From the IMG/VR virus record IMGVR_UViG_3300027740_000046, positions 1-43,258 of that record: a stretch of 43,258 nucleotides of DNA. One strand, written 5' to 3'. The stretch is from a virus (taxonomy: Duplodnaviria > Caudoviricetes). The notes beneath the pieces were generated by a model. The model saw only the letters and a program-made list of their open reading frames with translations. It had not been told where the DNA came from and ran no database searches. Of the stretch, positions 555 to 43,258 are shown piece after piece (position 1 is the first letter of the stretch; each line of letters starts with the position of its first letter). Made by a program: the position numbers and the translations under genes.

Positions 555-1475
555 TTATTCTCCTGAGAATAATCCTGGTTCGCTTTCTTCAATCGCGCGG
601 TCTTTGGCCGAGACGACTTGCGTTTCAGACACGACCTCGCCCGTGTTAGGATCGGTTTTGATTTCGGTTTCGGTTTGCTCTCGGAGCTTGCTTTTAAGCG
701 CCGCGACACCTTTGTCGATCGGCGAGGAGACAACGTCAGCCTCGATATCAAAATCTGCATAATCGTCGCTATTGGCATGCTCCTCGATGTCCATCGCGCG
801 CGATAGCTCGATACTTATCGGCCAGTATTTTGACCCGCGACGTACTACGGTCTTACGGCACATCTCCTCATAATCGGTAACCCACGGGCCGGACTCGGCG
901 GCCTTCGACCGCGAGCGTATCTTATTTATCTCGGCTATCGTCATAAACTCGACATGACGACCGTCACCCTTGAATACGGCCACGGAATACGCGCCTATAG
1001 GCTTACCGGGATCCTCGATTATGCACGGGGTATGCTGTATCTCGGGAGATGTACCAAATCGAATAGAAAAAACATCGTGCTCGTGTACCACGTGAGATTC
1101 AACGGATACAATTTCACCCGATCTGCGCGCTAGACTGATATATCCACGGTAGCCAATGATGAGTTGCGCCTCCATAACTAACTTGCCGGTTTCTCTGTCC
1201 TTACGCTTAAAAGGTACTAGGTAGGCATGGCCGAGCGCTCCTCCTCCGACCTCGAGCCCCAGCTCGGCGGCGGACATAACGCAACGCATGAAGCTAGGCA
1301 CAGTACATACCAATAGGCCAGGGTTGCGCCCCATGGCTAGTAGCGCAATCTTAACCATGCGTTCCGGCGTAAGGTGCTTTGCGATCGTCGCTGGGAGTAC
1401 AGCGCGTATGCTTGGTAGGGCTTTTTCAAGCGACGCCTTGTACGGAGCGATTGCGATTGAGGTTACTTTTTCCAT
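555..1475 (-). CDS. recT: RecT-family single-strand annealing protein
   Basis: Motifs SAAELGLE, GHAYLVPF, AQLIIGYRGYISLARRSG, PWVTDYEEMCRKTV; next to YqaJ. Confidence 0.93.
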   Translation of the reverse strand: MEKVTSIAIAPYKASLEKALPSIRAVLPATIAKHLTPERMVKIALLAMGRNPGLLVCTVPSFMRCVMSAAELGLEVGGGALGHAYLVPFKRKDRETGKLVMEAQLIIGYRGYISLARRSGEIVSVESHVVHEHDVFSIRFGTSPEIQHTPCIIEDPGKPIGAYSVAVFKGDGRHVEFMTIAEINKIRSRSKAAESGPWVTDYEEMCRKTVVRRGSKYWPISIELSRAMDIEEHANSDDYADFDIEADVVSSPIDKGVAALKSKLREQTETEIKTDPNTGEVVSETQVVSAKDRAIEESEPGLFSGE

Positions 1476-1478
1476 TTT

Positions 1479-2417
1479 CTATTTACTCTCTTTCTTCCAG
1501 AAAACCTTGAAGGGCCTAGCGCCAGGTTTTAAAATAGTGTGTTTTGCAATCAGAGCTTGCGATGCATTTAACTCGCGAGCTATAAGCTGCCACTCGATGA
1601 CACTCGACGGCATGTTGTTCTTGTAATCGATACGGCCGAACGATCCTTTTATACCGGATTTATCGCCGATGGTTTGAATTAATACGGCTTTTATTTTATC
1701 CAGATCTTGCTCAGAATGTTTGAGCGTCTCGATTTGCCTGTGATAATCATCTATCGTGTTTGACAGAATCTCGTCCGCTTCAACGTAATCCTTAATGCGG
1801 GCCGTTGGATGGAGTTGCTTGATCGTATTCACATCAGCCGGACCAGCCGGCGGCGGAATTTTGGTCTCGACGTAATCGCGCCAAAACTTTTCGCTTGCCT
1901 CACGAAATATTTGAAATAATTCCTCGTCGTACATTACCGGGTATATGCGCAGAGCCGTGCCGATATCCGCCGGAATATCGGTCCGAGCTGTCTCTGTCAC
2001 TGCCGCTACGAAAATCGCCTGTGGTATGTAGTGCTGTGGGATATCGTCGCTACCGTCTTTGCCCCACTGCCGCTGAGTCCAGGGTGTGGGCGCCTTGGCC
2101 TCCACGGCGCGGTATTCCGATAGGCCGAATACCGCGACCGCGTCGGGCGTCGCCGCGATCAATGGGTATTTGCGATGGATAATTGTTCCCGGCTTACGCA
2201 ATTTAGCGCCTGTTCTTGCGACGTACCAATCGAGAATACCGCTCTCAAGATACGTTCCGCGTTCCATCGCTTCATTCGGTTCGGTCGCTGGCAGCAAACC
2301 GAGCTTCTCGCCCCATACCGTAAGTGGCCCGCCAAACGGCGATATATTGAGTATACGCGCGATATCGGTCCCGGTTATATGGTGTTTCCGACGTTCGATC
2401 TGTTCAGATGTTAGCAT
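1479..2417 (-). CDS. YqaJ-like viral recombinase exonuclease
   Basis: Motifs ITGTD, AMERGTYLE, ATPDA, VEAK, IPQHYIPQ. Confidence 0.9.
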   Translation of the reverse strand: MLTSEQIERRKHHITGTDIARILNISPFGGPLTVWGEKLGLLPATEPNEAMERGTYLESGILDWYVARTGAKLRKPGTIIHRKYPLIAATPDAVAVFGLSEYRAVEAKAPTPWTQRQWGKDGSDDIPQHYIPQAIFVAAVTETARTDIPADIGTALRIYPVMYDEELFQIFREASEKFWRDYVETKIPPPAGPADVNTIKQLHPTARIKDYVEADEILSNTIDDYHRQIETLKHSEQDLDKIKAVLIQTIGDKSGIKGSFGRIDYKNNMPSSVIEWQLIARELNASQALIAKHTILKPGARPFKVFWKKESK

Positions 2418-2434: not shown

Positions 2435-2713
2435 TTATCTAATCTCGTATTCCTTCTTTAAGAATTTTAGCTCGTGTATTATATCACGCTGTAATTCGGT
2501 GCTACACGGTAGAGGATTCGTGCCTTCGATCGTATCGAGTTTATCACGGCCCTCTAAGTGACCGACAAGTTGGCTTAGTAAACCAATGATCCGGAGTATA
2601 TCTTTTCTATCCATTTTGTTCACTCCATATCGCGGTCGCGACTCATAAGCCGTCGCGCTGGCATTGGTTGCTGGCAAGGAGGGTATCGTCTCATCGGATA
2701 ACACTTCGGTCAT
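2435..2713 (-). CDS. Hypothetical protein; starts at 2713 (reads through repeat B) or at internal ATG 2614
   Basis: Both starts have an SD (GAGGAG; GGAG); the repeat translates as TNASATAYESR. Confidence 0.55.
   Translation of the reverse strand: MTEVLSDETIPSLPATNASATAYESRPRYGVNKMDRKDILRIIGLLSQLVGHLEGRDKLDTIEGTNPLPCSTELQRDIIHELKFLKKEYEIR
2635..2670 (-). repeat. Solo CRISPR repeat copy B
   Basis: Perfect 36/36 reverse-complement match to the array repeat. Confidence 0.97.
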
Positions 2714-3376
2714 TTATTTTTTCTCCTCGATTAGTTCGAGTAAATAATTCAATTGCGTTTGGCACTCGTCGATAATTGCGGCGACAGCGACCGCGACGTC
2801 GTCAGCGGCGCTGGCGGAGACAGCGGCGTGGGCGGCGAAAGCAGCGCAGTTATCGCAGTTATCGCAGTCATCGCAGTCATCGCAGTCATCGCAGTCGAGG
2901 TGGGCGGCGCGGGCGGCGATAGCGGCGCGGACGTCGCGGGCGTCGCAGGCGCCGCTGGCGGAATCGCGGGCATCGCGCTCGGCGCGGGCGGCGTCGAGGT
3001 CGAGGGCATCGTCGCGGACGGCGATAGCGGCGCGGGCGGCGATAGCGGCGTGGGCGGCGATAGCGGCGCGGGTGGCGGCGGCGATGGCGTCGCGGGCGGC
3101 GATAGCGGCGCGGGCGGCGGCGCGGGCGAGGGCGTCATCGGCGTGATAACACGCACGCAGCGTGCTCCACCGGGCGTATTCGGTCGCTGCATCTGCTCCG
3201 CGTAGATGGATCAGGACCCTGGTCAGCGTCCACAGCCGGTCCTGGATCGGTACATCGCCGGCCGCGATTTCTCGCAGTGTCTTGCCGGCGCCGTATAGCT
3301 CCATGAGTCTAGTGCGAGTATAAGGTTCGCACGGCTCCCACGAGCCGACTAGCTCAGCGGTTATGAGATTAGCCAT
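2714..3376 (-). CDS. Ala-rich low-complexity hypothetical protein with a (CDD/CDN)n tract
   Basis: GAGGAGG SD; coupled to neighbours; AAIAAR repeats. Confidence 0.7.
   Translation of the reverse strand: MANLITAELVGSWEPCEPYTRTRLMELYGAGKTLREIAAGDVPIQDRLWTLTRVLIHLRGADAATEYARWSTLRACYHADDALARAAARAAIAARDAIAAATRAAIAAHAAIAARAAIAVRDDALDLDAARAERDARDSASGACDARDVRAAIAARAAHLDCDDCDDCDDCDNCDNCAAFAAHAAVSASAADDVAVAVAAIIDECQTQLNYLLELIEEKK
2845..2896. repeat. 9-bp tandem repeat CGCAGTYAT, about 5.8 copies
   Basis: Directly visible; encodes a CxxCxxC run on the minus strand. Confidence 0.9.
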
Positions 3377-5988: not shown

Positions 5989-6396
5989 ATGAAAGATAAA
6001 GAGCGTTTTGCGTCGTTGCGCGGTAGTTACCACGCAGACCCTTCGATGTTGGGCCGCTCGTTAGAAGCTCGTGGTCTTTACGCGTGCGGGTTGTCTTATT
6101 GCGCGGCATGGATGACAGACGGAAAAATTCCGAAAGCAATCGTCGGTTCGTGGTTCAGAGCGACACCAGATTGTCACGCGTTATGTCACGCGGAACATAA
6201 CGCGTCTGTCACACGAGAATTGCTTGTACGGCTGCCCCACGAGCGGCGACCAATGTGGTCCGAAGATGACGAATTTTATTGGGTCATAGCATATACAGAG
6301 CATAATTGGACGCGGAAAAGAATCGAAGACGAAAGGCTTAAAGCCGCGAAAAGACAAGCAAAACACAGGAGGAAGTCAGGCGATGATAATGAGTGA
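5989..6396 (+). CDS. Putative replication initiator, N-terminal-like protein
   Basis: ARGLY, TDGKIP, Y.EHN and basic AAKRQAKHR tail resemble phage initiator N-termini; precedes iterons and primase. Confidence 0.55.
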   Translation: MKDKERFASLRGSYHADPSMLGRSLEARGLYACGLSYCAAWMTDGKIPKAIVGSWFRATPDCHALCHAEHNASVTRELLVRLPHERRPMWSEDDEFYWVIAYTEHNWTRKRIEDERLKAAKRQAKHRRKSGDDNE

Positions 6397-6538
6397 CGTA
6401 ACGCGTGACGTAACGCGTGACGTAACGCGTGACGTAACGCGTGACGTAACGCGTGACATAACGCGTGACTCTCTCTTTCTCTTTCTACGTCTCTTTCTCT
6501 GTCTATCCGGATCCGGATACACCACGAGGAAATTGTGA
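6383..6538 (+). CDS. Short 51-aa ORF with (DVTR)n repeats
   Basis: AGGAGG SD; overlaps the upstream stop; its TGA overlaps the primase GTG. Confidence 0.4.
   Translation: MIMSDVTRDVTRDVTRDVTRDVTRDITRDSLFLFLRLFLCLSGSGYTTRKL
6393..6469. repeat. 12-bp tandem repeat GTGACGTAACGC, about 6.4 copies; candidate origin iterons
   Basis: Directly visible; exact 20-bp inverted copy at 6173-6192. Confidence 0.9.
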
Positions 6539-7500
6539 GCAGTAGAGACTACGCACGCGGGAGCAACAGCAATCTCTCTTTGGGGGGGAGCGCGCCGGCG
6601 TACCCCGTGACCGACCTGGTAGCCGACCTGGTAGCCCACGGCGCCGCGTTCGCCCGGCCGCTCGAGGTCGACGGCAAGGTCCACCGGTGCGCGACGGTGA
6701 CTCGCCCCCGGAAGAAGAATTTTTCCTACCTGCTCTATCCGGATGGTTGCGGTGGCTGGTACGAAAATCACGAGACCGGTGAGGGGCCCCAGCGCCTCTA
6801 CCTTGCCCCCGGCCGGAAAGCCGAGGCAACCACGGACCAGCGAGCGCAGTGGGCAACTCAGAGGTCGGAGCGCGCGGCGATGGCACGGAAAGCTCGAGTC
6901 GAGGCCCGAGCGCGGGCGAGGGCGATTTGCTCGCAAGCTCACCCGGCGCTACCGGATCACCCGTACCTCGAGAAAAAACAGATCAAGCCATACGAGCTGC
7001 TGCAACGCGGAGTCGAACTGGTCGCGCCGATTGTGTCGGTCGAGGGTGACGTCCAGACGATCGAGCGAATTTCTCCGCGTGGTGAAAAAAAGTTTTTGCC
7101 GGGCGGCGCGGTGGCAGGAAATTTTTACGCGCTAGGCGAAGTGTGGACTGGACGCCGGTTGTTGATTTGCGAGGGAGTAGCTACCGCTCACACGCTTTTC
7201 GAGTCCACCGGGTTGCCGACCGTTGCCGCGATGTTTGCCGGTAACCTTGAGCCCGTGACGCGCGTCATAAGCAAGATGGATAGACAATGTAAAATTCTAA
7301 TATGCGCTGACGACGACTGGAAAACCAAGGGCAACCCCGGACTAACCGCCGCGACCAAGGCCGCATCGGTGGTTGACGGCCGGGTTGTTATTCCCGACTT
7401 CATCGACTTGAAGCGCGGCGATAAAGACACCGATTTCAACGACCTGCAACTCTTAACCGGGCTACACGAGGTGAGGCGACAAATCATATGGGCTCTGTAG
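6535..7500 (+). CDS. Toprim-domain DNA primase (P4-alpha/TraC-like)
   Basis: Motifs HPYLEKK, GEKKFLPG, ICEGVATA, CADDD, GNPG, TDFNDL. Confidence 0.9.
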   Translation: MSSRDYARGSNSNLSLGGSAPAYPVTDLVADLVAHGAAFARPLEVDGKVHRCATVTRPRKKNFSYLLYPDGCGGWYENHETGEGPQRLYLAPGRKAEATTDQRAQWATQRSERAAMARKARVEARARARAICSQAHPALPDHPYLEKKQIKPYELLQRGVELVAPIVSVEGDVQTIERISPRGEKKFLPGGAVAGNFYALGEVWTGRRLLICEGVATAHTLFESTGLPTVAAMFAGNLEPVTRVISKMDRQCKILICADDDWKTKGNPGLTAATKAASVVDGRVVIPDFIDLKRGDKDTDFNDLQLLTGLHEVRRQIIWAL

Positions 7501-10022
7501 AACAAACCACGCTCGATTTCGGAGTGAAGCCCGAACGTCGCAACAAGCGCATCTTGCGAGCCTACCAAACCGCAGCGGTCGAGGCTATCGAGCGCGAGCT
7601 TACCACGAGTAAATCAACGCTAGTAGTCATGGCTACTGGGTTAGGTAAATCGGTAGTGCTCGGCGAGCTTGCCGCGAGGACCGCCGGAAACGTGCTCGTC
7701 CTGTCCCATCGAAACGAACTCGTGCGGCAGGTACGAGAACATCTGTGGGATGCATCTGGCGAGTGGACGGCTATCGAGCAGGGGCTACTACAGGCCGGAG
7801 AAGCTCGCTTAGTATCTGCCAGCGTGCAAACCATGGTACGGCGTTTAAAGAATTTTGACCAAGACTGGTTTGAGTTGATTGTGATTGACGAGTGTTTCCC
7901 GGCATGGACGATGATTGGCGATAAAAAGATCGAGGAGATTCGTGTTGGTGATTTGGTAGAAAGTTTTAATCACGCAACGGGGGAAGTAGAAAAAAAGAAG
8001 GTTGTTCGCCTATTCACGAAAAAAGCCACGGCTTTCGTCGGAATAAATTTCGGGGACGGTAACGATTTGGTATGCACTGTAAATCATCCGGTTTATATGA
8101 GAAGAGACGGAAAGGATAAATATGTCAAGGCGGAAAATATTGCAGCGGGCGACCTGTGTTGTATGCGGACTAGCGTTCGAGCGCGAGACGGACACGTCTC
8201 AGAGACCGCCGAGGGTATGCTCTCGGGAATGCCAGCGAAAGTTATCATCGACGACCATGGCGCGCACAAATCGAGCGTATGCATCGGAACGAATGCGGTT
8301 AAGAAATCCGATGAAGATAGAAAACGTTCGCGCATCTGTGAGCAAAACACTGAAACGAATCGGGCATCGTCCGCCGTGGCGGGGAGGGAATGGAACTGGT
8401 CCGACAATTCCGGAAGCGATGCTACTGGAAGAACTGGGAAACGGTTGGATTTGGAATCATTCGGTTGCGACGAAGATACCAAAAGGAAACGGATATCCGC
8501 GTTGTTACAAGATCGATGTGGCAAATCCGAAAAATCAAATAGCCGTAGAGGTAGACGGATCGAGCCATGCGGCACTAATCAGACGGGAGCAGGACAGGAA
8601 GAAAGACGGCTTTTTACGTGGTGCAGGGTGGAGAGTGTTGAGAGTATCGAATATCTGTGTGACGGGGGACTTGCCGTCTATAATCTCGAAGTTGAAGAAA
8701 ATAGCAACTACTTCGCCAACGGCTACTTAGTTCATAATTGTCATCATGCCGTAGCCAGTACCTACCGAAAAATCATAGAGCATTTCGGTGCGAGAATAGT
8801 GGGAGTAACCGCGACTCCGGATCGTGGCGACGGCACGGGACTACGCGGTATTTTTCAGACCGTAGCCTACGAAATGGGAATTGTACAAGGTGTCGAGGAC
8901 GGGTGGCTGGTGCCGCTCAAGGGTCAGCGTCGATTTATCGAGGGTATCCACCTAGAGAAGATAAAGAAAGTGGCCGGCGACCTCGCCCTCGGTGCGCTTG
9001 ACAACGAAATCGTGAACTCGAAAGTGGCGATAGCTCGCGATCTGGTAGCGCGACTGCAGGACAAGCACGCAATAGTTTTTACCCCTGGCGTTGAATCAGC
9101 GAAGTTGGTGTCCGCCGCGTTGAATGAGATTATACCGGGTTGCTCGCGTGAGGTAGACGGAAACACGAACGAAGACGAGCGGCGCGAATCGTTCGATCTA
9201 TTCAAATCGGGGCGTATAGGCTACCTAGTGAACTGCGCGATAGCCACGGAAGGAGTCGACCTTCCTGTCGCCGATGTGATCGCAATGTGCCGTCCGACGC
9301 TGTCACGCGCGTGTTATACGCAAATGGTCGGACGAGGTCTTCGATCACGATCCGCGGAGCTGGAAACGCTGAGCTTGCCCGAAGAGAGGAGGCTTGCGAT
9401 AGCTAGGAGCTGTAAACCGGACTGCCTGATTTTGGATTATGTCGGGAACTCGGGTAAGCACGACCTGATAGGTCCGGAGGATATTCTAGGCGCTGACGAA
9501 TCGGACGCGGTACGTAAGACCGCAAAGAAAATTATAAAAGAAAAATCGAATGCTGGCGAACAAATCGATATTCAAGAAGCTATTCGACTGGCCAAAAAAG
9601 CGCTGGCCGAGCTTGCCGATCGGCGCGTTGAAGCGAGGGTGCGCTCGCACGGGTTCGACCCGCTCGCGGCGTTTCTCCTAAAGGGGCGCCTACGGCCGGA
9701 CATGGATCAACGGATCGAGCCTCCCACGGCCGCGCAACTAGGAGCGCTGCTGAGATTCAAGTTGAAAGAGAGCGAACTGAAAGGGCTAACCAAGCGATCG
9801 GCCGGCGCGCTAATGGATAAACTAATCGAACGGAGTCGCCTTGGGCTGTGTTCTGCGGGACAGATGAGAGTGTTGATAAAATTCACGGACATATCACAAT
9901 CCGATCTCGCTAACGTTAGCTTCCCGCTAGCCAGCGCGATGATAGACAGGATAGCGAAATCAAACTGGAAACGCGGTTGGACGAGAGATGAATTATACCC
10001 GAAAGATAATTTTATTTATTAG
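7488..10022 (+). CDS. Superfamily 2 DExH helicase containing an intein
   Basis: LRAYQ, ATGLGKS, DE|CH (split), TATP, EGVD, QMVGRGLR. Confidence 0.93.
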   Translation: MGSVEQTTLDFGVKPERRNKRILRAYQTAAVEAIERELTTSKSTLVVMATGLGKSVVLGELAARTAGNVLVLSHRNELVRQVREHLWDASGEWTAIEQGLLQAGEARLVSASVQTMVRRLKNFDQDWFELIVIDECFPAWTMIGDKKIEEIRVGDLVESFNHATGEVEKKKVVRLFTKKATAFVGINFGDGNDLVCTVNHPVYMRRDGKDKYVKAENIAAGDLCCMRTSVRARDGHVSETAEGMLSGMPAKVIIDDHGAHKSSVCIGTNAVKKSDEDRKRSRICEQNTETNRASSAVAGREWNWSDNSGSDATGRTGKRLDLESFGCDEDTKRKRISALLQDRCGKSEKSNSRRGRRIEPCGTNQTGAGQEERRLFTWCRVESVESIEYLCDGGLAVYNLEVEENSNYFANGYLVHNCHHAVASTYRKIIEHFGARIVGVTATPDRGDGTGLRGIFQTVAYEMGIVQGVEDGWLVPLKGQRRFIEGIHLEKIKKVAGDLALGALDNEIVNSKVAIARDLVARLQDKHAIVFTPGVESAKLVSAALNEIIPGCSREVDGNTNEDERRESFDLFKSGRIGYLVNCAIATEGVDLPVADVIAMCRPTLSRACYTQMVGRGLRSRSAELETLSLPEERRLAIARSCKPDCLILDYVGNSGKHDLIGPEDILGADESDAVRKTAKKIIKEKSNAGEQIDIQEAIRLAKKALAELADRRVEARVRSHGFDPLAAFLLKGRLRPDMDQRIEPPTAAQLGALLRFKLKESELKGLTKRSAGALMDKLIERSRLGLCSAGQMRVLIKFTDISQSDLANVSFPLASAMIDRIAKSNWKRGWTRDELYPKDNFIY
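7893..8738 (+). mobile_element. Intein (282 aa) inserted in the helicase DECH motif
   Basis: Starts CFPAWT; block B CTVNHP; ends VYNLEVEENSNYFANGYLVHN followed by Cys. Confidence 0.93.
8122..8730 (+). CDS. Vsr/DUF559-like endonuclease nested in the +1 frame of the intein
   Basis: GGAAAGGA SD; CxxC...CSREC zinc motif; YKIDVA, IAVEVDGSSH, QDRKKDGFLRGAGWRVLRV. Confidence 0.85.
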   Translation: MSRRKILQRATCVVCGLAFERETDTSQRPPRVCSRECQRKLSSTTMARTNRAYASERMRLRNPMKIENVRASVSKTLKRIGHRPPWRGGNGTGPTIPEAMLLEELGNGWIWNHSVATKIPKGNGYPRCYKIDVANPKNQIAVEVDGSSHAALIRREQDRKKDGFLRGAGWRVLRVSNICVTGDLPSIISKLKKIATTSPTAT

Positions 10023-10236
10023 GAAATTGCGTAATGAACACCGATGGTAAAACCCACAAAGCCATACGTGAGCTAATCCTTGCCGGCCATCAGATCAACG
10101 CCGACGAGGTAACGATTAAACGCGCATGGCTACCCGATATAATCTCAATACTCAAAAAGTTCGGCGATGAAAAAGATAGCGAGCTAGTGGAAAAATTGGA
10201 GGCGCTAATAGGAAATTGCGTAATGAACACCGATGG
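10020..10236. repeat. 28-bp direct repeat pair (10020-10047 and 10209-10236)
   Basis: TAGGAAATTGCGTAATGAACACCGATGG occurs twice. Confidence 0.9.
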
Positions 10237-10285
10237 CAAATACCAACCAATGCCAGCGCGACGGCTTACGAATCGCGACAAATGA
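10034..10285 (+). CDS. Hypothetical protein; C-terminus reads through repeat C
   Basis: AGGA SD; ATGA overlap with the next gene. Confidence 0.55.
   Translation: MNTDGKTHKAIRELILAGHQINADEVTIKRAWLPDIISILKKFGDEKDSELVEKLEALIGNCVMNTDGKYQPMPARRLTNRDK
10244..10279 (+). repeat. Solo CRISPR repeat copy C
   Basis: CAACCAATGCCAGCGCGACGGCTTACGAATCGCGAC, 34/36. Confidence 0.95.
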
Positions 10286-10777: not shown

Positions 10778-11172
10778 CCATCAATGCCAGCGCGATGGCT
10801 TACGAATCGCGACGGTACCGCTCCGAAAGACGGTAGAATAAAACAAGGAAAGGATAGATAAATGAAACATACAGCAATCCTATGGATGCGGTTGTTTGTT
10901 TCTAATGCCAGCGCGATGGCTTATGAATCGCGACGATATTTCTCAAAACGTCAAGCATTAAGACGTCATGCCGCGGAATGGGGCGTGCGGCCGCGATGGT
11001 ACGAGACAAACGCGAGGCTGAGAAAACGCATCCAGGCGGTTTTACGCAATCCGCCTGTGACTGACGATATACAGACTTTAAACCACAATGCCAGCGCGAT
11101 GGCTTATGAATCGCGACGCTCGGCCCGCGGGCGGCTCAATCAATGCCAGCGCGACGGCTTACGAATCGCGAC
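10778..11172 (+). CRISPR. Irregular cluster of four variant repeats: D 10778-10813, E 10899-10934, F 11082-11117, G 11137-11172
   Basis: All share the core AATGCCAGCGCGAYGGCTTAYGAATCGCGAC; gaps of 85, 147 and 19 nt. Confidence 0.85.
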
Positions 11173-11224
11173 CGTCGCAATTCATAAGCCGTGTAAAGGC
11201 ATAAAAAGGGAGCCCAAGAAATGA
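10862..11224 (+). CDS. Hypothetical protein reading through three CRISPR repeats
   Basis: AAGGAAAGGA SD; ATGA overlap with the next gene; NASAMAYESR occurs twice. Confidence 0.5.
   Translation: MKHTAILWMRLFVSNASAMAYESRRYFSKRQALRRHAAEWGVRPRWYETNARLRKRIQAVLRNPPVTDDIQTLNHNASAMAYESRRSARGRLNQCQRDGLRIATVAIHKPCKGIKREPKK
11174..11192 (+). other. Anti-repeat, an inverted partial copy of the CRISPR repeat
   Basis: GTCGCAATTCATAAGCCGT matches the reverse complement of the repeat 3' half at 17/19. Confidence 0.85.
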
Positions 11225-11748
11225 CCTGCCGCGATAGAGCGTGTATAATCTACGGTGTTTTTCTGATCGGCGTAGTCTGCTTTGAGCTGAGTACATGCCG
11301 TGGACCGGCGCGCGCGGACGACCGCCGATTATGGCTGGCGCGCTGCATGGTCGCCGAAGCGGGCTTTCGCGCCGGTCCGGACGATGGCGCCATAGCCGGC
11401 GTACTCATGAGCAAGGCCGCACGCTCCGGCAAGACCTTGGTCTGGATGGTCAGACACTACTGTCGCGGGCTTTACCGCGCGAATGCCTCTTGGCTGCGCT
11501 ACCTACGCGAGAGCCCGGTCCAGCCCCGCTACTGGCCCGTGCGGTGGGCTTGGTCCGAGTCGCGCGATGACTGGCTGGAAAAACTCGAACGCGCGCAGGC
11601 CGCGCTAGACGGGATACTCTACGACCCGTGTGACGGGGTCGCCTCGCATTGGCGCGGACCGCACGATAAAACCCCGGCGTGGTTCGAATCTGTCGATTGT
11701 GGGCGGACTAAAAATATATTCGGAAGAACGAAAGGAACTCGGAAATGA
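11221..11748 (+). CDS. Putative SleB/Hydrolase_2-like cell wall hydrolase
   Basis: Hydrophobic N-terminus; WLARCMVAEAG, DPCDGVASHW, P.W pattern. Confidence 0.55.
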   Translation: MTCRDRACIIYGVFLIGVVCFELSTCRGPARADDRRLWLARCMVAEAGFRAGPDDGAIAGVLMSKAARSGKTLVWMVRHYCRGLYRANASWLRYLRESPVQPRYWPVRWAWSESRDDWLEKLERAQAALDGILYDPCDGVASHWRGPHDKTPAWFESVDCGRTKNIFGRTKGTRK

Positions 11749-13241
11749 CAACGAAAGTTTTTAAATACGGAGCCTTACCAGTTACTCTCGATAGCGAGAT
11801 TCGCAAGAAAATGAAGTTAGCAAGGGAATATTACAATCAACTGGTAGAGGCAGAGAACGGTCGACGTAAAACGGTATGGGGCGGCGAGCGTCCCAAACAA
11901 CCTCCGCATGAGCACAAGGACGAGCCGGTTTGCGAAGAATGCAAAAAGCACTGGAAGGATATTAGAGACAAATATTTTGCTACACCACCCTTAGATATAA
12001 AACCATTGCGAGCGAAGGCATCGGAAGCGGGTTTGTATTGGGGGACGTATTTGATAATCGAAGAAAGTTTTTCCGCTGCTTGGAAGAAAACAGATGGGTT
12101 ATCAACCGTACGCTATAAATCCTGGCGAGATGGCGGAATAATGGGAGTACAATTACAGCAAGCGCATTCAGCAAATGGTTTCTATCGTATAGAGCAAGCG
12201 CCAGATCCGCGAAAAGGTCGTAAGGCTGGACAACGCCACGCGGTAAAGATAAGAATCGGAACCCGAGAAAACAAACCGGTATGGTCGGAACCTATCGCGT
12301 TCGAAATGCATCGTCCGTTACAAGGTCGGCCGACCTGGGTAAAGATTTGCTATTTCTATCGGGGCGAGCGTGAAATCTGGTCGGTGAATATTACCTGTAC
12401 AGACGTACCCGAACGGGCCTTGCCTGATACGGCTAAGGTTTTGGCGATCGATATCGGCTGGCGCGTTATGTCGGACGACAGCATTCGCGCGGCATATGCT
12501 AGAGACGAGAACGGTAACGAAAGCGAATTACTGTTTGATTCTCGTTGGAGGGAATGCGGAGATAGGGCGGATCGTATAAGATCGGCGCGAGACGATCGAC
12601 TAAACGAACTCAAGAAAAAAGATACTCGATTTAGTCTAATAAAAAAGCCGTCAGGCATACGTGGATATGTTGCGAAAAATTCGATAGAAGATACCGAGGT
12701 TACCGAGTGGATAAAACAGGATCGACACCTGGAACAATACGAATTAGGATGTCGCCGTCGAAGCGTAGCGGTCCGAAAAGAAAAATTACGGGTCTGGCTG
12801 TCGTCATTGAGAAAGCAATACGCTACGGCGATTATCAAGGATAGCAGTCACAAGGAAATGAAAGCCGCTAAACGGGCTAAGGCAGATGGTATGCCACCCC
12901 CGGCGCGGCGCAACGCTCACCATGGGGCGCCTGGCGAAATCGTCGAGGAAATCTGTCGTGCGTTCGGACGGCAGACGAATATTGCGATCGTTGAAGCTCC
13001 GGGGACGACTGCCACGTGCGCGAGTTGTGGCCAAGAGATGGAAATCGGCGCTGAATTGATGATTACGTGCGAGCGGTGCAATGCTCGTGAGGATAGAGAT
13101 TGCATAAGTACGCGGAATATGCTACGTTTGTACGCAAGTGGGAATTGCAAAAAACCCACCGCTCGAAAAACAATCGCAAGGTTCGCGAAAAGACACAAGA
13201 ATTATGTGGAGCCCAACCAATGCCAGCGCGACGGCTTATGA
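11745..13241 (+). CDS. cas12m: Compact type V CRISPR effector, Cas12m (V-U1)-like / TnpB superfamily; RuvC-II apparently degenerate
   Basis: N-terminal KVFKYG..YYNQLVE, GLYWGTY, MHRPL; RuvC-I LAIDIGWR; RuvC-II region AIIKD lacks the canonical E; CxxC-CxxC zinc ribbon; RuvC-III DRDCISTRNM; abuts a CRISPR array. Subtype is less certain than the type V call. Confidence 0.8.
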   Translation: MTTKVFKYGALPVTLDSEIRKKMKLAREYYNQLVEAENGRRKTVWGGERPKQPPHEHKDEPVCEECKKHWKDIRDKYFATPPLDIKPLRAKASEAGLYWGTYLIIEESFSAAWKKTDGLSTVRYKSWRDGGIMGVQLQQAHSANGFYRIEQAPDPRKGRKAGQRHAVKIRIGTRENKPVWSEPIAFEMHRPLQGRPTWVKICYFYRGEREIWSVNITCTDVPERALPDTAKVLAIDIGWRVMSDDSIRAAYARDENGNESELLFDSRWRECGDRADRIRSARDDRLNELKKKDTRFSLIKKPSGIRGYVAKNSIEDTEVTEWIKQDRHLEQYELGCRRRSVAVRKEKLRVWLSSLRKQYATAIIKDSSHKEMKAAKRAKADGMPPPARRNAHHGAPGEIVEEICRAFGRQTNIAIVEAPGTTATCASCGQEMEIGAELMITCERCNAREDRDCISTRNMLRLYASGNCKKPTARKTIARFAKRHKNYVEPNQCQRDGL

Positions 13242-13466
13242 GTCGCGACGCTCTCGGTGATACGTCGCCGGATTAAAGCGAGTACCAACCAATGCCAGCG
13301 CGACGGCTTATGAGTCGCGACGTCTGCGTGACGGCCGCCTGCGTGACGGCCGCGCGCCAACCAATGCCAGCGCGACGGCTTATGAGTCGCGACTCGTCCG
13401 CTAAAATAGCCGTTTTCTCGGCGGCGCCGACAACCAATGCCAGCGCGACGGCTTATGAGTCGCGAC
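13214..13466 (+). CRISPR. CRISPR mini-array: 4 identical 36-bp repeats, 3 spacers (36, 36, 37 bp)
   Basis: CAACCAATGCCAGCGCGACGGCTTATGAGTCGCGAC at 13214, 13286, 13358, 13431; stem CGCGAC/GTCGCG. Confidence 0.98.
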
Positions 13467-18326: not shown

Positions 18327-19400
18327 ATGGCTTTCACCTGCCCTTCCTTACCGTCCCACCAATGCCAGCGCGACGGCTTACGAATCGCGACATGCTCGGA
18401 ATTCCCGGTACTAATCGACGGCGCGCTGCCGGAGTGGCTTGAGATAATTCCCCCCCCCGTGGATGGCGCGGTACGAGGTCGCGATGGGCGCGCGTATACC
18501 ATGCGTGATCCGGTTGCGGTCCTCGATGAATTCGTGCGACTCGGGCTGGATCTGCCGATCGATATCAACCACTCGTCGGAGCTGGCAGCACCACGGGGCG
18601 AAGAGAGTCCTGCCATGGGTTTCGTGACAGAGCTCGTGATCAAGCCGGGCGGCGGGATATGGGGCCGCGCGGAATGGACCGAGTACGGCCGTCGATGGCT
18701 TGCCGGAAATCCGTATAAATACGTATCTCCCGCGTTTCGGGTCGACGGCAAACAGATTTCGGAAAAGCTCGGCACGTTGGGTGAGGTGATCGCGCTGACG
18801 AGTATAGGCCTAACAAATAGGCCGAATTTTGATTTGATGGCGCTAAACGCTAAAAACGATAATAGCGAAATAAAATCGGAGGATAACCAGATGGATACGA
18901 AGAATTTTTTGACTACTCTAGGTTTGAAAGAAAACGCAACGCCGGAGCAAATCAAGGCGCGCATCGACGAACTGGTCGAAGCAGCGACCGTGCCCGTGCC
19001 CGCGCTAAATTCGCAGGAAGCAATCAACGCGCAGATTGATATCGCGGTACAAGCCGCGGTTAAGCCTCTGCAAGAACAAGCGCAAAAAGCACGTGCGATA
19101 GCGATCAACACCACGATCGATCGGTACGTGGCGCTCGGCAAGATCCAGCCGACCGCGGAGTCAAAGAAATTCTGGGCCGATAGCTGCGGCGATTCCGAGG
19201 ACGGGTTACTTCGCGTATCCAAGCATCTCGAATTGATGCCTAGTCTGGTCTCGACGAACGCTACACTACCGGGTCTTCCGCCGGAGCAAGGAGCGGGATC
19301 ACTAACCGATAGTCAGATTAAGATCTGTGACATGTTACAGATTTCACAGGACGATTATAAGAAAACCCTGGCCGCGCGTCAGGGGAAGGAAGGTAATTAA
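18327..19400 (+). CDS. Mu gp32 (I)-like prohead protease/scaffold
   Basis: PEWLEIIP, GRDGR, PIDINH, EWTEYG, YKYVSPAF, GLTNRP. Confidence 0.92.
   Translation: MAFTCPSLPSHQCQRDGLRIATCSEFPVLIDGALPEWLEIIPPPVDGAVRGRDGRAYTMRDPVAVLDEFVRLGLDLPIDINHSSELAAPRGEESPAMGFVTELVIKPGGGIWGRAEWTEYGRRWLAGNPYKYVSPAFRVDGKQISEKLGTLGEVIALTSIGLTNRPNFDLMALNAKNDNSEIKSEDNQMDTKNFLTTLGLKENATPEQIKARIDELVEAATVPVPALNSQEAINAQIDIAVQAAVKPLQEQAQKARAIAINTTIDRYVALGKIQPTAESKKFWADSCGDSEDGLLRVSKHLELMPSLVSTNATLPGLPPEQGAGSLTDSQIKICDMLQISQDDYKKTLAARQGKEGN
18356..18391 (+). repeat. Solo CRISPR repeat copy H inside the 5' end of the protease gene
   Basis: CCACCAATGCCAGCGCGACGGCTTACGAATCGCGAC, 33/36. Confidence 0.93.
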
Positions 19401-35067: not shown

Positions 35068-36519
35068 ATGCGTGCTGGATTACAAATACAATTAATAATC
35101 TCCAAGCGTTTACCGATAACGGCGGGAGAGGTTTTGCGTTTGTCTTTCGATCTCATCTCCTTTGCGAACGCGTCGAACGCGCGCTATGCGATTAATCCGG
35201 TAACGGGTGAGATTGTTGGACCATACGGAGCGGCCGTACTTGCGGAAATACCAGTAGCCGGTAGGCGGTGTTTGGTATTACGTGGGGCTGCTAATGCGTT
35301 TACAGACCTCGGTCAGCAATATAGCGAGGGTTATGTACTCGCTCTAGCCAGTCTTGGCGACGGAATAGCACTAGCCGGCACGGGTCCGAATGGTAAGATC
35401 CTACGCTCGACGAATCACGGGGCTACATGGACAGACCTCGGTCAGCAGTATAGTGAGGCTTATATACTCGCTCTAGCCAGTCTTGGCGACGGAATAGCAC
35501 TAGCCGGTACACGTCTGAATGGTAAGATCCTACGCTCGACGAATCACGGGGCTACATGGACAGACCTCGGTCAGCAATATAGCCAGAATTATATATTCGC
35601 TCTAGCCAGTCTTGGCGACGGAATAGCACTAGCCGGCACATGTCCGAATGGTAAGATCCTACGCTCGACGAATCACGGGGCTACATGGACAGACCTCGGT
35701 CAGCAATATAGCCAGACCGATGTACGCGCTCTAGCCAGTCTTGGCGACGGAATAGCACTAGCCGGCACGAGTCCGAATGGTAAGATCCTACGCTCGACGA
35801 ATCACGGGGCTACATGGACAGACCTCGGTCAGCAGTATAGCCAGACCGATATACTCGCTCTAGCCAGTCTTGGCGGCGGAATAGCACTAGCCGGCACGGG
35901 TACAAGCGGTAAGATACTACGCTCGACGAATCACGGGGCTACATGGACAGACCTCGGTCAGCAGTATAGTGAGGCTTATATATTCGCTCTAGGCAGTCTT
36001 GGCGGCGGAATAGCACTAGCCGGTACACATTCGGGCGGCAAGATACTACGTTCGAAGAATAATTCCTATTCTCAGTTTAAAGATCAAGCTTTTTACACGA
36101 CCGCTGTAGTCCCCGTTGCGTTTCGCAATCGTGTTTTATCTTTGCGCATACCCGAATATTCCAGCGCGGAATTAGCGCTGTGTACACCTGGAAGCAAACG
36201 CTATCTTTTTCGATATGCCGATAGCGGAGCGAATGCGTTCGGAGTTTATCTACTGAGCACCGATCAAAAACTCTACGCGGAAGTCAATGGTGTTAACGTA
36301 GCGGCGACTGCTACGGCCTGTACATGGTCGGCATATCAGCAAATCTGCGCTCGCGTGGATCGTGCAGCGGGTACTGTTGCGTTAACTGGTATGACCACGG
36401 GTGACGATGCGTTATCGTTTACGCCCCCGGCCGTGAGCAATGGTAATTTGTATCTGGGCATGGACGACAACGAAGCCAATCAGTTCGAAGGATTCTGCGC
36501 TGAACCGGAGTTATGGTAA
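35068..36519 (+). CDS. BNR/Asp-box beta-propeller protein, probably a virion appendage
   Basis: Six 43-aa repeats containing RSTNHGATW. Confidence 0.8.
   Translation: MRAGLQIQLIISKRLPITAGEVLRLSFDLISFANASNARYAINPVTGEIVGPYGAAVLAEIPVAGRRCLVLRGAANAFTDLGQQYSEGYVLALASLGDGIALAGTGPNGKILRSTNHGATWTDLGQQYSEAYILALASLGDGIALAGTRLNGKILRSTNHGATWTDLGQQYSQNYIFALASLGDGIALAGTCPNGKILRSTNHGATWTDLGQQYSQTDVRALASLGDGIALAGTSPNGKILRSTNHGATWTDLGQQYSQTDILALASLGGGIALAGTGTSGKILRSTNHGATWTDLGQQYSEAYIFALGSLGGGIALAGTHSGGKILRSKNNSYSQFKDQAFYTTAVVPVAFRNRVLSLRIPEYSSAELALCTPGSKRYLFRYADSGANAFGVYLLSTDQKLYAEVNGVNVAATATACTWSAYQQICARVDRAAGTVALTGMTTGDDALSFTPPAVSNGNLYLGMDDNEANQFEGFCAEPELW
35302..36055. repeat. 129-bp tandem repeat, about 5.8 copies
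   Basis: Units start at 35302, 35431, 35560, 35689, 35818, 35947. Confidence 0.95.
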
Positions 36520-41209: not shown

Positions 41210-41288
41210 CGGCGCCGACGTGGCGCCGATCGAGCTCTAGCGCTCGCCACGCCCCCCCGGCTGTCCGGGGGGACGGGACCAGAGCTAG
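41210..41288. repeat. 79-bp intergenic direct repeat, copy 1
   Basis: About 90% identical to 41537-41615; contains hairpin CCCCCGG-CTGT-CCGGGGG. Confidence 0.92.
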
Positions 41289-41536: not shown

Positions 41537-41615
41537 CGGCGCCGACACGGCACCGATCGAGCTCTAGCGCTCGCCACGCCCCCCCGGCTGTCCGGGGGAG
41601 CGGGACCAGTGCTAG
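41537..41615. repeat. 79-bp intergenic direct repeat, copy 2
   Basis: About 90% identical to 41210-41288. Confidence 0.92.
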
Positions 41616-42584: not shown

Positions 42585-42695
42585 GTCGCGACTCATAAGC
42601 CGTCGCGCTGGCATTGGTTGGCGCTACGCCGTGTAACGTGGCAGCAATTCTGCGCGCGCGTCGCGACTCATAAGCCGTCGCGCTGGCATTAATAG
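42585..42695 (-). CRISPR. Second mini-array: repeats J (42660-42695) and I (42585-42620) with one 39-bp spacer
   Basis: I is a perfect 36/36 copy; J matches over the 31-bp core. Confidence 0.92.
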
Positions 42696-42716: not shown

Positions 42717-43079
42717 TCAATTCAGCGGTCGAAACGTGATTACCACTACCTCGGGATCTGTAATACAGAGATTAGGGTGTAGTTGCCTCCATACGGAGAA
42801 ATAACCCGCCCGGGTAGGTGGCTCGACACATTCGGCGATGGCGTCTTCGTCCGTTAGATCGTACAAGGGCTCTATCTTTACACTCTCTATCCAAACATAA
42901 GCCTCCACGGCGGATAATCTTTTGCGTTTTAGGCCCACGCGCGTTTCGCTGCGCCAGCATAGGCCGCCGTCGGCTAGCCAGGATGAATCTTTCAGTAAGC
43001 GCCTGGTCTGCGTTTTCTTGCCAGACAGGCATAACTCAATCGCGTCAGCCCGGAATGACATTAATAGTGGGCGGCTCAT
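42717..43079 (-). CDS. ASCH/PUA-like domain protein
   Basis: LSGKKTQTRR, IESVKIEPLYDLTDEDAIAE, P.VVVITF. Confidence 0.82.
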   Translation of the reverse strand: MSRPLLMSFRADAIELCLSGKKTQTRRLLKDSSWLADGGLCWRSETRVGLKRKRLSAVEAYVWIESVKIEPLYDLTDEDAIAECVEPPTRAGYFSVWRQLHPNLCITDPEVVVITFRPLN

Positions 43080-43096: not shown

Positions 43097-43258
43097 CCGG
43101 TCGCGACTCATAAGCCGTCGCGCTGGCATTGGTTGCCGCTGACCGGTAGCGGCCGCTACTGCTTCGCTAGCACGGTTATATTCGATAAGCCTCTTTGATT
43201 TCATCGAATAGCGCCGAGGCGCGTTGCGTTAACTCATCGAGTTTGTCTCTGTGCTCCC
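43097..43258. repeat. Terminal direct repeat / circular assembly overlap, right copy
   Basis: Matches 1-162 with one mismatch. Confidence 0.95.
43100..43135 (-). repeat. Solo CRISPR repeat copy A
   Basis: Perfect 36/36 reverse-complement match. Confidence 0.97.

Follow-up and report, generated by a model that had tools for sequence, protein, structure and literature searches.

A lone Cas12m-type CRISPR repeat before a ribosome-binding site in a phage early operon, probably the empty form of a satellite array

What is an intact CRISPR repeat doing alone in an early phage operon, directly before the ribosome-binding site (RBS) of a small gene? The question is raised by locus B on the minus strand of the window, by which we mean the whole analyzed stretch of 43,258 nucleotides. 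The ends of this record are duplicated over 162 nt (the unit is 43,096 nt), and it carries head and tail genes of Mu-like type, a helicase with an intein, and YqaJ/RecT. Locus B lies inside a leftward early operon, flanked by a 220-aa ORF (2714-3376) and yqaJ, and comprises the following features.

2635 to 2670, minus strand: copy B, a lone 36-nt Cas12m-type CRISPR repeat, identical to all four main-array repeats
2615 to 2634, minus strand: the B trailer, 20 nt with GGAG at 2626-2623, sequence CGCGATATGGAGTGAACAAA
2435 to 2614, minus strand: 59-aa ORF (MDRKD...) from ATG 2614, the start as in the ENA gene call
2435 to 2713, minus strand: 92-aa long form reading through the repeat from ATG 2713, the JGI/IMG call
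1479 to 2417, minus strand: YqaJ exonuclease, directly downstream of B in the same early operon
555 to 1475, minus strand: RecT, in the same early operon as B

The lone repeat at B and its cognate effector

The preliminary description of this locus, a repeat followed by exactly 20 nt with a Shine-Dalgarno (SD) motif and then an ATG, is exact: the repeat runs from 2670 to 2635, and GGAG lies 8 nt 5' of ATG 2614. The SD:anti-SD energy at this start is −5.9 kcal/mol, equal to the median of 55 called genes and to the 10th percentile of 400 sampled random ATGs, and an extra ATG at +6 within the 20 nt reads M-E-stop. An upstream in-frame start, also pointed out earlier, is present at 2713, where it overlaps the upstream stop (TAAATG) and has a stronger SD (−8.9) than ATG 2614. 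Databases carry both forms, the 92-aa one in JGI/IMG (2 contigs) and the 59-aa one in ENA. The 59-aa protein had no match in Pfam, PHROGs, the 5.8-billion search or the Atlas, Rfam gave 0 matches, and a protein search with the 92-aa ORF recovered no relatives beyond the 59-aa form and one further protein, P0172, discussed below. A hairpin sequestering the SD was not seen at B, where shuffled sequences fold as well as the region itself (z 0.07), and a consensus scan placed no promoter-like site directly upstream, the nearest leftward one being at 3900-3872.

The same record encodes the cognate system.

11745 to 13241, plus strand: Cas12m-like effector, 498 aa, by sequence and fold matches
13214 to 13466, plus strand: main CRISPR array, 4 repeats with spacers of 36, 36 and 37 nt

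Judged from sequence and a modelled fold, the system is type V-M (Cas12m). The only PDB sequence match of the effector is Cas12m (23vw, E 7.5e-22), PADLOC returned Cas12u1 and a Cas12f model (E 8e-41 each), and the AlphaFold model (pLDDT 88.9) has Cas12m as its top four Foldseek matches (TM 0.64-0.68). Among its relatives, 59 of 77 matches make one clade with 38-100% identity, and arrays of the same repeat family lie behind the gene in cas12m relatives. The RuvC residues D236, D450 and D452 are invariant in 55 aligned relatives, and the RuvC-II glutamate position is a lysine (Lys365) in 55 of 55. This replacement makes DNA cutting unlikely and suggests that the RuvC domain is inactive on DNA. 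No cas1 gene was found in the window record or in any of 25 virus records, as against 7 of 14 control genomes. The last codons and stop of the effector gene lie inside the first array repeat (13214-13241), and many relatives end in the same repeat-encoded residues. In four other loci (L015, L047, L051 and L052) the arrays are irregular, with very short or absent spacers, or spacers that contain repeat fragments.

The 36-nt repeat forms a stem plus pseudoknot that ends 2 nt before its 3' end. Across 45 repeats, the 6-bp stem and the 3-bp pseudoknot stem covary, with 92% of cells paired and double changes at 9 of 9 pairs; none of 500 shuffles scored as high, and slid controls reached 30-44%. In Cas12m2 the scaffold precedes a 20-nt guide segment and the effector cleaves upstream of the scaffold (PMC10442227), and self-processing of pre-crRNA inside the repeat without tracrRNA is described for Cas12m (PMC11013384, PMC10442227) and may be presumed for the phage effector. 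Since a cognate handle stands in the transcribed sense at B with the RBS at the guide position, effector loading would overlap the RBS. The part of the earlier claim that placed the RBS where a guide would lie, on the sense strand, therefore stands, and the part that took the 20 nt for a tuned guide-length spacing falls, as set out below. A regulatory crRNA-like RNA of the CreR/CreA or scaRNA type, which pairs in part with a promoter of cas or cargo genes, does not fit: within the phage, the B trailer has no promoter target and no second match, the best other site being 14/20.

Several other features were noted in the window: the helicase gene with its intein (7488-10022), within the intein region of which lies a separate-frame 202-aa ORF (8122-8730) with a DUF559-type nuclease domain; a direct repeat of 79 nt (41210-41288 and 41537-41615) that follows two leftward genes and has a G+C hairpin; 129-nt tandem units in a tail-fibre-like gene (35173-36117); and a 12-nt tandem repeat in the replication region (6387-6470).

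Dispersed copies and their distance to start codons

Outside the main array, the window contains ten repeat copies at eight sites, which besides B are as follows.

43100 to 43135 (= 4-39, terminal duplication), minus strand: copy A, a lone repeat 40 nt 3' of a stop
42585 to 42695, minus strand: two-repeat mini-array with a 39-nt spacer, at the end of copy A's leftward operon
10244 to 10279, plus strand: lone variant repeat at the end of ORF 10034-10285
10778 to 10813, plus strand: lone, intergenic variant repeat whose stem has a compensated pair (C-G replaced by T-A); ATG 10862 follows after 48 nt
10899 to 10934, plus strand: lone variant repeat, in frame in ORF 10862-11224, an ORF without family support
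11082 to 11192, plus strand: repeat pair (19-nt spacer), then an antisense repeat copy; the pair ends 48 nt before ATG 11221
18356 to 18391, plus strand: lone variant repeat, part of the reading frame at the N-terminus of GpI, a Mu-like protease

All eight sites are sense to their local genes (3 on the minus strand, 5 on the plus strand), and no further degenerate copy was detected in the window, the next CM hit having an E of 1.3. The copies retain a 31-nt handle; they differ at the five leading bases, at a single loop base and at a single stem pair, the last being compensated in 3 window copies and mismatched in 3. Read in the TGA frame of the array repeat, the copies at 11137 and 18356 carry a variant without TGA. 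Three to four copies other than B lie within reading frames, downstream of the RBS; ORF 10862-11224 contains three repeats, and the N-terminus of GpI is 15 residues longer than that of its closest relative, the extension containing the repeat.

At individual sites we further observed that the repeat in GpI falls in frame within the first 22 codons of this capsid protease (18327-18391), whose ATG at 18327 has no detected SD and is followed by no in-frame ATG before the conserved core. Just upstream of the 10244 repeat, a 28-nt SD-ATG segment is exactly duplicated (10209-10236 = 10020-10047); this duplication is spacer-sized and has no repeat on its 5' side. The antisense copy at 11173-11192 matches at 18 of 20 positions, can fold back on the pair at 11082-11172 (z −3.15) and stands 28 nt upstream of a gene coupled to cas12m; it might prevent loading or direct the effector towards repeats. 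Apart from this fragment, no self-targeting by trailers or spacers was found in the window. At many lone sites (2671-2713, 43136-43175 and several in a second phage, G006) the previous stop lies about 36-47 nt, one spacer length, from the repeat.

Other records also carry dispersed repeats. Of the 15 whose match lists are complete, G003, G004/G005, G006/G007, G012, G021 and G029 have copies away from the cas12m array and 7 (G001, G002, G008-G011 and G014) have none; G002 lacks the region of G003's lone repeat and thus offers no empty-site comparison there. One of these, G006, is a 175.9-kb phage (L141-L149) with two arrays and 19 dispersed repeat sites, 17 of them intergenic though the record is 91% coding, and 17 clearly sense. 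Its non-array sites are nearly all single, and some have 5-6 changes from the array repeat with stem II kept: stem II is changed at 6 of 240 positions and the remaining core at 39 of 360 (p=1e-4), as are 33 of 120 positions in the six bases at the 5' end. Two of its sites form an inverted pair (62492-62591) similar to window 11082-11192. Several of its repeats lie beside UvsX-like, RuvC-like and Cas4-like exonuclease genes and one directly after the portal gene; the neighbours of the G006 repeats share no common gene class and most are without a PHROG.

It had also been claimed that the 20-nt spacing recurs at copy A, and an ATG does stand at +20 there, with an SD of −8.4, opening an ASCH-like gene (42717-43079) whose family model aligns from residue 1. 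A start at +20 is found, however, in only 2 of the 14 distinct window copies, A and B; in the other 12 the first ATG is at +0, +1, +2, +2, +25, +33, +42, +42, +43, +45, +48 and +48. Random positions had an SD and start at exactly +20 in 0 of 600 cases and at +10 to +26 in 18 of 600, and therefore the arrangement at A and B is not an effect of random sequence. In G006, called starts lie 10, 11, 12, 14, 14, 21, 22 and 26 nt behind 8 of 17 intergenic sites, a proximity whose p value is 0.004 if every gap base counts equally and 0.70 if every gap does; repeat-to-start distances in other loci are 18, 21, 27 and 41 nt. Counting an SD plus start at 10-26 nt gives 2 of 9 sites in the window and 8 of 22 in G006, compared with 3-7.5% of random positions, and 0 of 5, 0 of 4 and 0 of 1 sites in G021, G029 and G014. 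The gene calls behind the position nulls came from a simple codon model that missed or miscalled some genes (2714-3376, 10862-11224), which affects these nulls. A fixed 20-nt spacing is rejected: it holds for 2 of 14 copies in the window, the G006 distances are 10-26 nt, and the gap-weighted null is not exceeded. Because intergenic insertions survive only upstream of an SD, and gaps are short, the order repeat, SD, start can arise without design. The recurring arrangement thus has no fixed length and cannot be told from the survival of insertions.

One explanation of these placements is that the lone repeats form a selected post-transcriptional regulon, in which Cas12m would bind and cut handles in the phage's own mRNAs, with the RBS either masked (A and B) or severed from the coding region (10899, 18356, and B when read from ATG 2713), and would thereby turn genes off as the effector accumulates. 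This extends the earlier proposal of translational control to all sites and drops the fixed 20 nt. It would agree with the sense orientation of all sites, with a 31-nt handle kept while the 5' bases vary, and with the compensatory pair in 3 window copies. The share of G006 sites with SD and start (8 of 22) exceeds that among random positions (30 of 400) and internal spacers (0 of 9), and 7 of 8 window sites lie at most 50 nt from a possible start, as assessed by hand, vs about 22% of positions. Terminal repeats of Cas12a arrays are mostly mutated against loading (PMC6610086), and the window copies are not; in L123 and L079, lone repeats also precede cas12m by 18 and 97 nt. The gap-weighted null, however, removes the start proximity, and neither the empty counts in G021, G029 and G014 nor the 7 of 15 records lacking a copy away from the array would be expected of a regulon. 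Among 81 loci examined, an array was detected in 49, of which only 2 have a repeat just before cas12m, and a general autoregulatory repeat before this gene is rejected on that count. The repeat number at B moreover differs between assemblies, and the G006 neighbours have no gene class in common. We therefore regard a selected regulon as a tentative possibility, and a rather unlikely one.

The array allele at B and the copying of repeats

The search with the 92-aa ORF yielded 2 proteins from 2 candidates, the 59-aa form (P0171) and P0172. The latter, of 102 aa, comes from an ENA contig of 37,514 nt that likely represents the same phage in another assembly; the same longest-contig figure is attached to P0171 and to P0001, an identical effector. 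P0172 consists of the 5' flank of B, a repeat, three units of spacer plus repeat, and a terminal RDME-stop, which is B's 20-nt trailer read in that frame. By codon count, at the protein level and in one assembly, this allele has 4 repeats with spacers of 35, 36 and 36 nt. Its spacer peptides, compared as peptides rather than DNA, have no match of at least 7 residues in the window and none in the loci compared. Since P0172 has B's flanks around 4 repeats and 3 spacers, B varies between one and four repeats, and the 20 nt are the constant trailer of the site. The 35-nt spacer breaks the frame from ATG 2713, so the long isoform is allele-dependent, and the earlier suggestion of long and short isoforms as a designed feature does not hold.

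Read data bear on the single-repeat state. In run X1, which may be the source of the window, repeat unitigs have depths of 120 and 100 vs 10-16 for their flanks, which fits 8 and 7 exact copies and not 11 and 10; as these are the window's exact copy numbers, the single-repeat state is no collapsed assembly. Run X3, from another study, contains main-array spacer 2 and also two variant-type repeats that flank a spacer not present in the window. The contigs of X1-X3 show no second allele or empty site at B and no joints that skip a repeat. Loose ends at 2665 and 10904 in X1/X2, where other contigs carry the repeat behind a different A/T-rich flank, suggest a second element with the same handle in the sample. 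Among viral contigs, a search for an empty site found no closely related phage by YqaJ, P0172 or the B trailer (0 matches for the trailer), and a search by repeat returned only a near-identical record that covers 5888 onward, without B.

Relatives suggest how a repeat may reach a new site. In L046, the cas12m gene (protein P0019) carries a 33-nt in-frame repeat insertion in its zinc finger (L046 1418-1453), giving 11 extra residues relative to P0020, which is 74% identical, and 29 residues between cysteines vs 18 in 44 of 55 relatives. For this 33-nt gain, 39 nt are common to the first array repeat plus flank, and a 4-5-nt microhomology is found at both ends; repeats thus do get copied to new sites. 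G029 has three separate, distant arrays with spacers in common. In the same record a spacer has a 30/30 match within its own genome (G029:C1, 56699 and 80551-80580). As sequence comparisons, L046, the G029 arrays and the GpI extension point to short-homology copying of repeats.

Taken together, the lone repeat at B probably represents a satellite array in its empty (zero-spacer) state. We consider it moderately probable that B is an empty satellite-array slot in the early recombination operon, and that masking of the RBS by the effector is a side effect. In such a scheme, repeats would be copied to new sites by short-homology events, as shown in a relative and presumed here, and would persist where reading frames and RBSs are spared, which by itself produces the order stop, repeat, SD, ATG. 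Site B might gain spacers through host Cas1-Cas2 acting in trans or by exchange with other arrays, and might lose them by repeat-to-repeat recombination, RecT and YqaJ being encoded next door. Late-made Cas12m may then cut the early mRNA within the 5' end of the repeat and stay on the 31-nt handle plus RBS, with the trailer loaded as an extraneous guide, and the 59-aa protein would be lowered as a by-product, selected or not. Such mRNA cutting and RBS masking at B are plausible.

Against the reading of B as an empty slot stand the following points: the array allele is seen as a single predicted protein whose count of repeats and spacers (4/3) is that of the main array; X1-X3 contigs offer neither a second allele nor an empty site; G006 and G007 carry the same 9 copies over their shared part, i.e., no expansion; and start proximity is significant under the base-weighted null. 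In addition, old, diverged single sites in G006 that have kept stem II are hard to explain as freshly collapsed arrays, and this stem conservation is the best argument pointing to a use of the lone state.

The first of these points would also suit an explanation in which B is a neutral insertion scar, the array allele an assembly mis-join of one contig, and nothing at B is used. The identity of B to the array repeat would then mean a recent insertion, and its position would be accounted for by insertion survival. It leaves unaccounted for, however, the strict sense orientation, the stem conservation of the older G006 copies, the foreign spacers of P0172 (main-array spacer 2 being stable in another study's run) and phages with several arrays such as G029, and there is little chance that it is right. 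We also judge very unlikely that the lone repeats make real guides from the sequence behind them and silence repeat-free alleles of kin, in a homing-like, Cas1-free manner. The geometry would fit, the repeat standing 5' of the guide on the sense strand; silencing by Cas12m works through DNA binding (PMC11013384, PMC10442227), and viral mini-arrays target kin (PMC11656645). No repeat-free allele was found, however, by trailer matches in viral contigs, by repeat-skipping joints in X1-X3 or by a search for relatives of the 59-aa gene, and an RBS is a poorly conserved target.

A bolder extension can be formulated, which we hold to be fairly improbable. The 31-36-nt handle might be a tiny mobile element, copied always in sense into phage operons, each copy being at once an array seed and an effector-gated site for cutting and clamping mRNA. 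The nuclease-dead Cas12 would then time the translation of phage genes across the genome in the manner of RNase III, loading the RBS as its guide.

Comparison with known systems

The locus touches on two open questions, the origin of new CRISPR arrays and the nature of solitary viral repeats. It offers one site in both states (one repeat, and four repeats with three spacers) together with a relative that has a freshly copied repeat, and makes the proposition that a lone repeat is the seed or remnant of an array testable in a two-part system, a 498-aa protein and a 36-nt repeat. If it is true that the effector clamps RBSs, this would be a natural Cas12 control of the mRNAs of its own genome without target DNA. 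No paper on Cas12m repeats dispersed through phage operons was found in the literature covered, which included few subscription papers and no supplements.

Like type V-M Cas12m (PMC10442227, PMC11013384), the system has a 36-nt repeat with stem and pseudoknot, an array directly behind the gene and an altered RuvC. By contrast, the effector here has about 500 aa and a D-K-D triad, is phage-borne without cas1 and has its stop codon inside repeat 1, and the operons of this phage hold ten additional repeats. One report describes a Cas12m on a phage next to a single array, and the text seen mentions no dispersed repeats (10.64898/2026.09.14.751636).

As a single intact repeat in a viral genome, B resembles viral solitary repeat units (SRUs) and RNA anti-CRISPRs, which are often intergenic (PMC10651486). 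With no other repeat within 100 bp, B counts as an SRU in the window allele and does not in the P0172 allele. Unlike SRUs or Racrs, it shares its genome with a cognate cas12m-like gene and array, and has no promoter of its own by consensus scan. Nevertheless, the lone repeats could be Racr-like decoys that titrate the phage's own or a host's Cas12m, since solitary viral repeats inhibit cognate systems (PMC10651486) and extraneous crRNAs can be abundant (PMC6610086). That the cognate effector is encoded by the phage itself, that B also occurs with spacers and that a promoter-like site directly upstream is lacking in the scan leave this only a very slim chance.

Viral mini-arrays include stand-alone repeats (SRUs) upstream of cas12a, and spacer gain in trans is known for adaptation-less systems (10.1101/2023.03.03.530964, PMC11656645). 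The window likewise holds small arrays and lone repeats apart from the main array, but its copies are spread over phage operons, beyond the cas locus, and nearly identical to the array repeat, and no target was found for trailers or spacers. The hallmarks of a satellite mini-array, identical repeats with unique 35-40-nt spacers, are present at B in P0172 at the protein level. The last comparison is with terminal repeats of Cas12a arrays, which yield extraneous crRNAs and which in natural V-A systems are mostly mutated against extraneous loading (11 of 14; PMC6610086). As there, a last or only repeat with its downstream sequence would be processed and loaded; unlike there, the window copies are intact and the trailer is an RBS.
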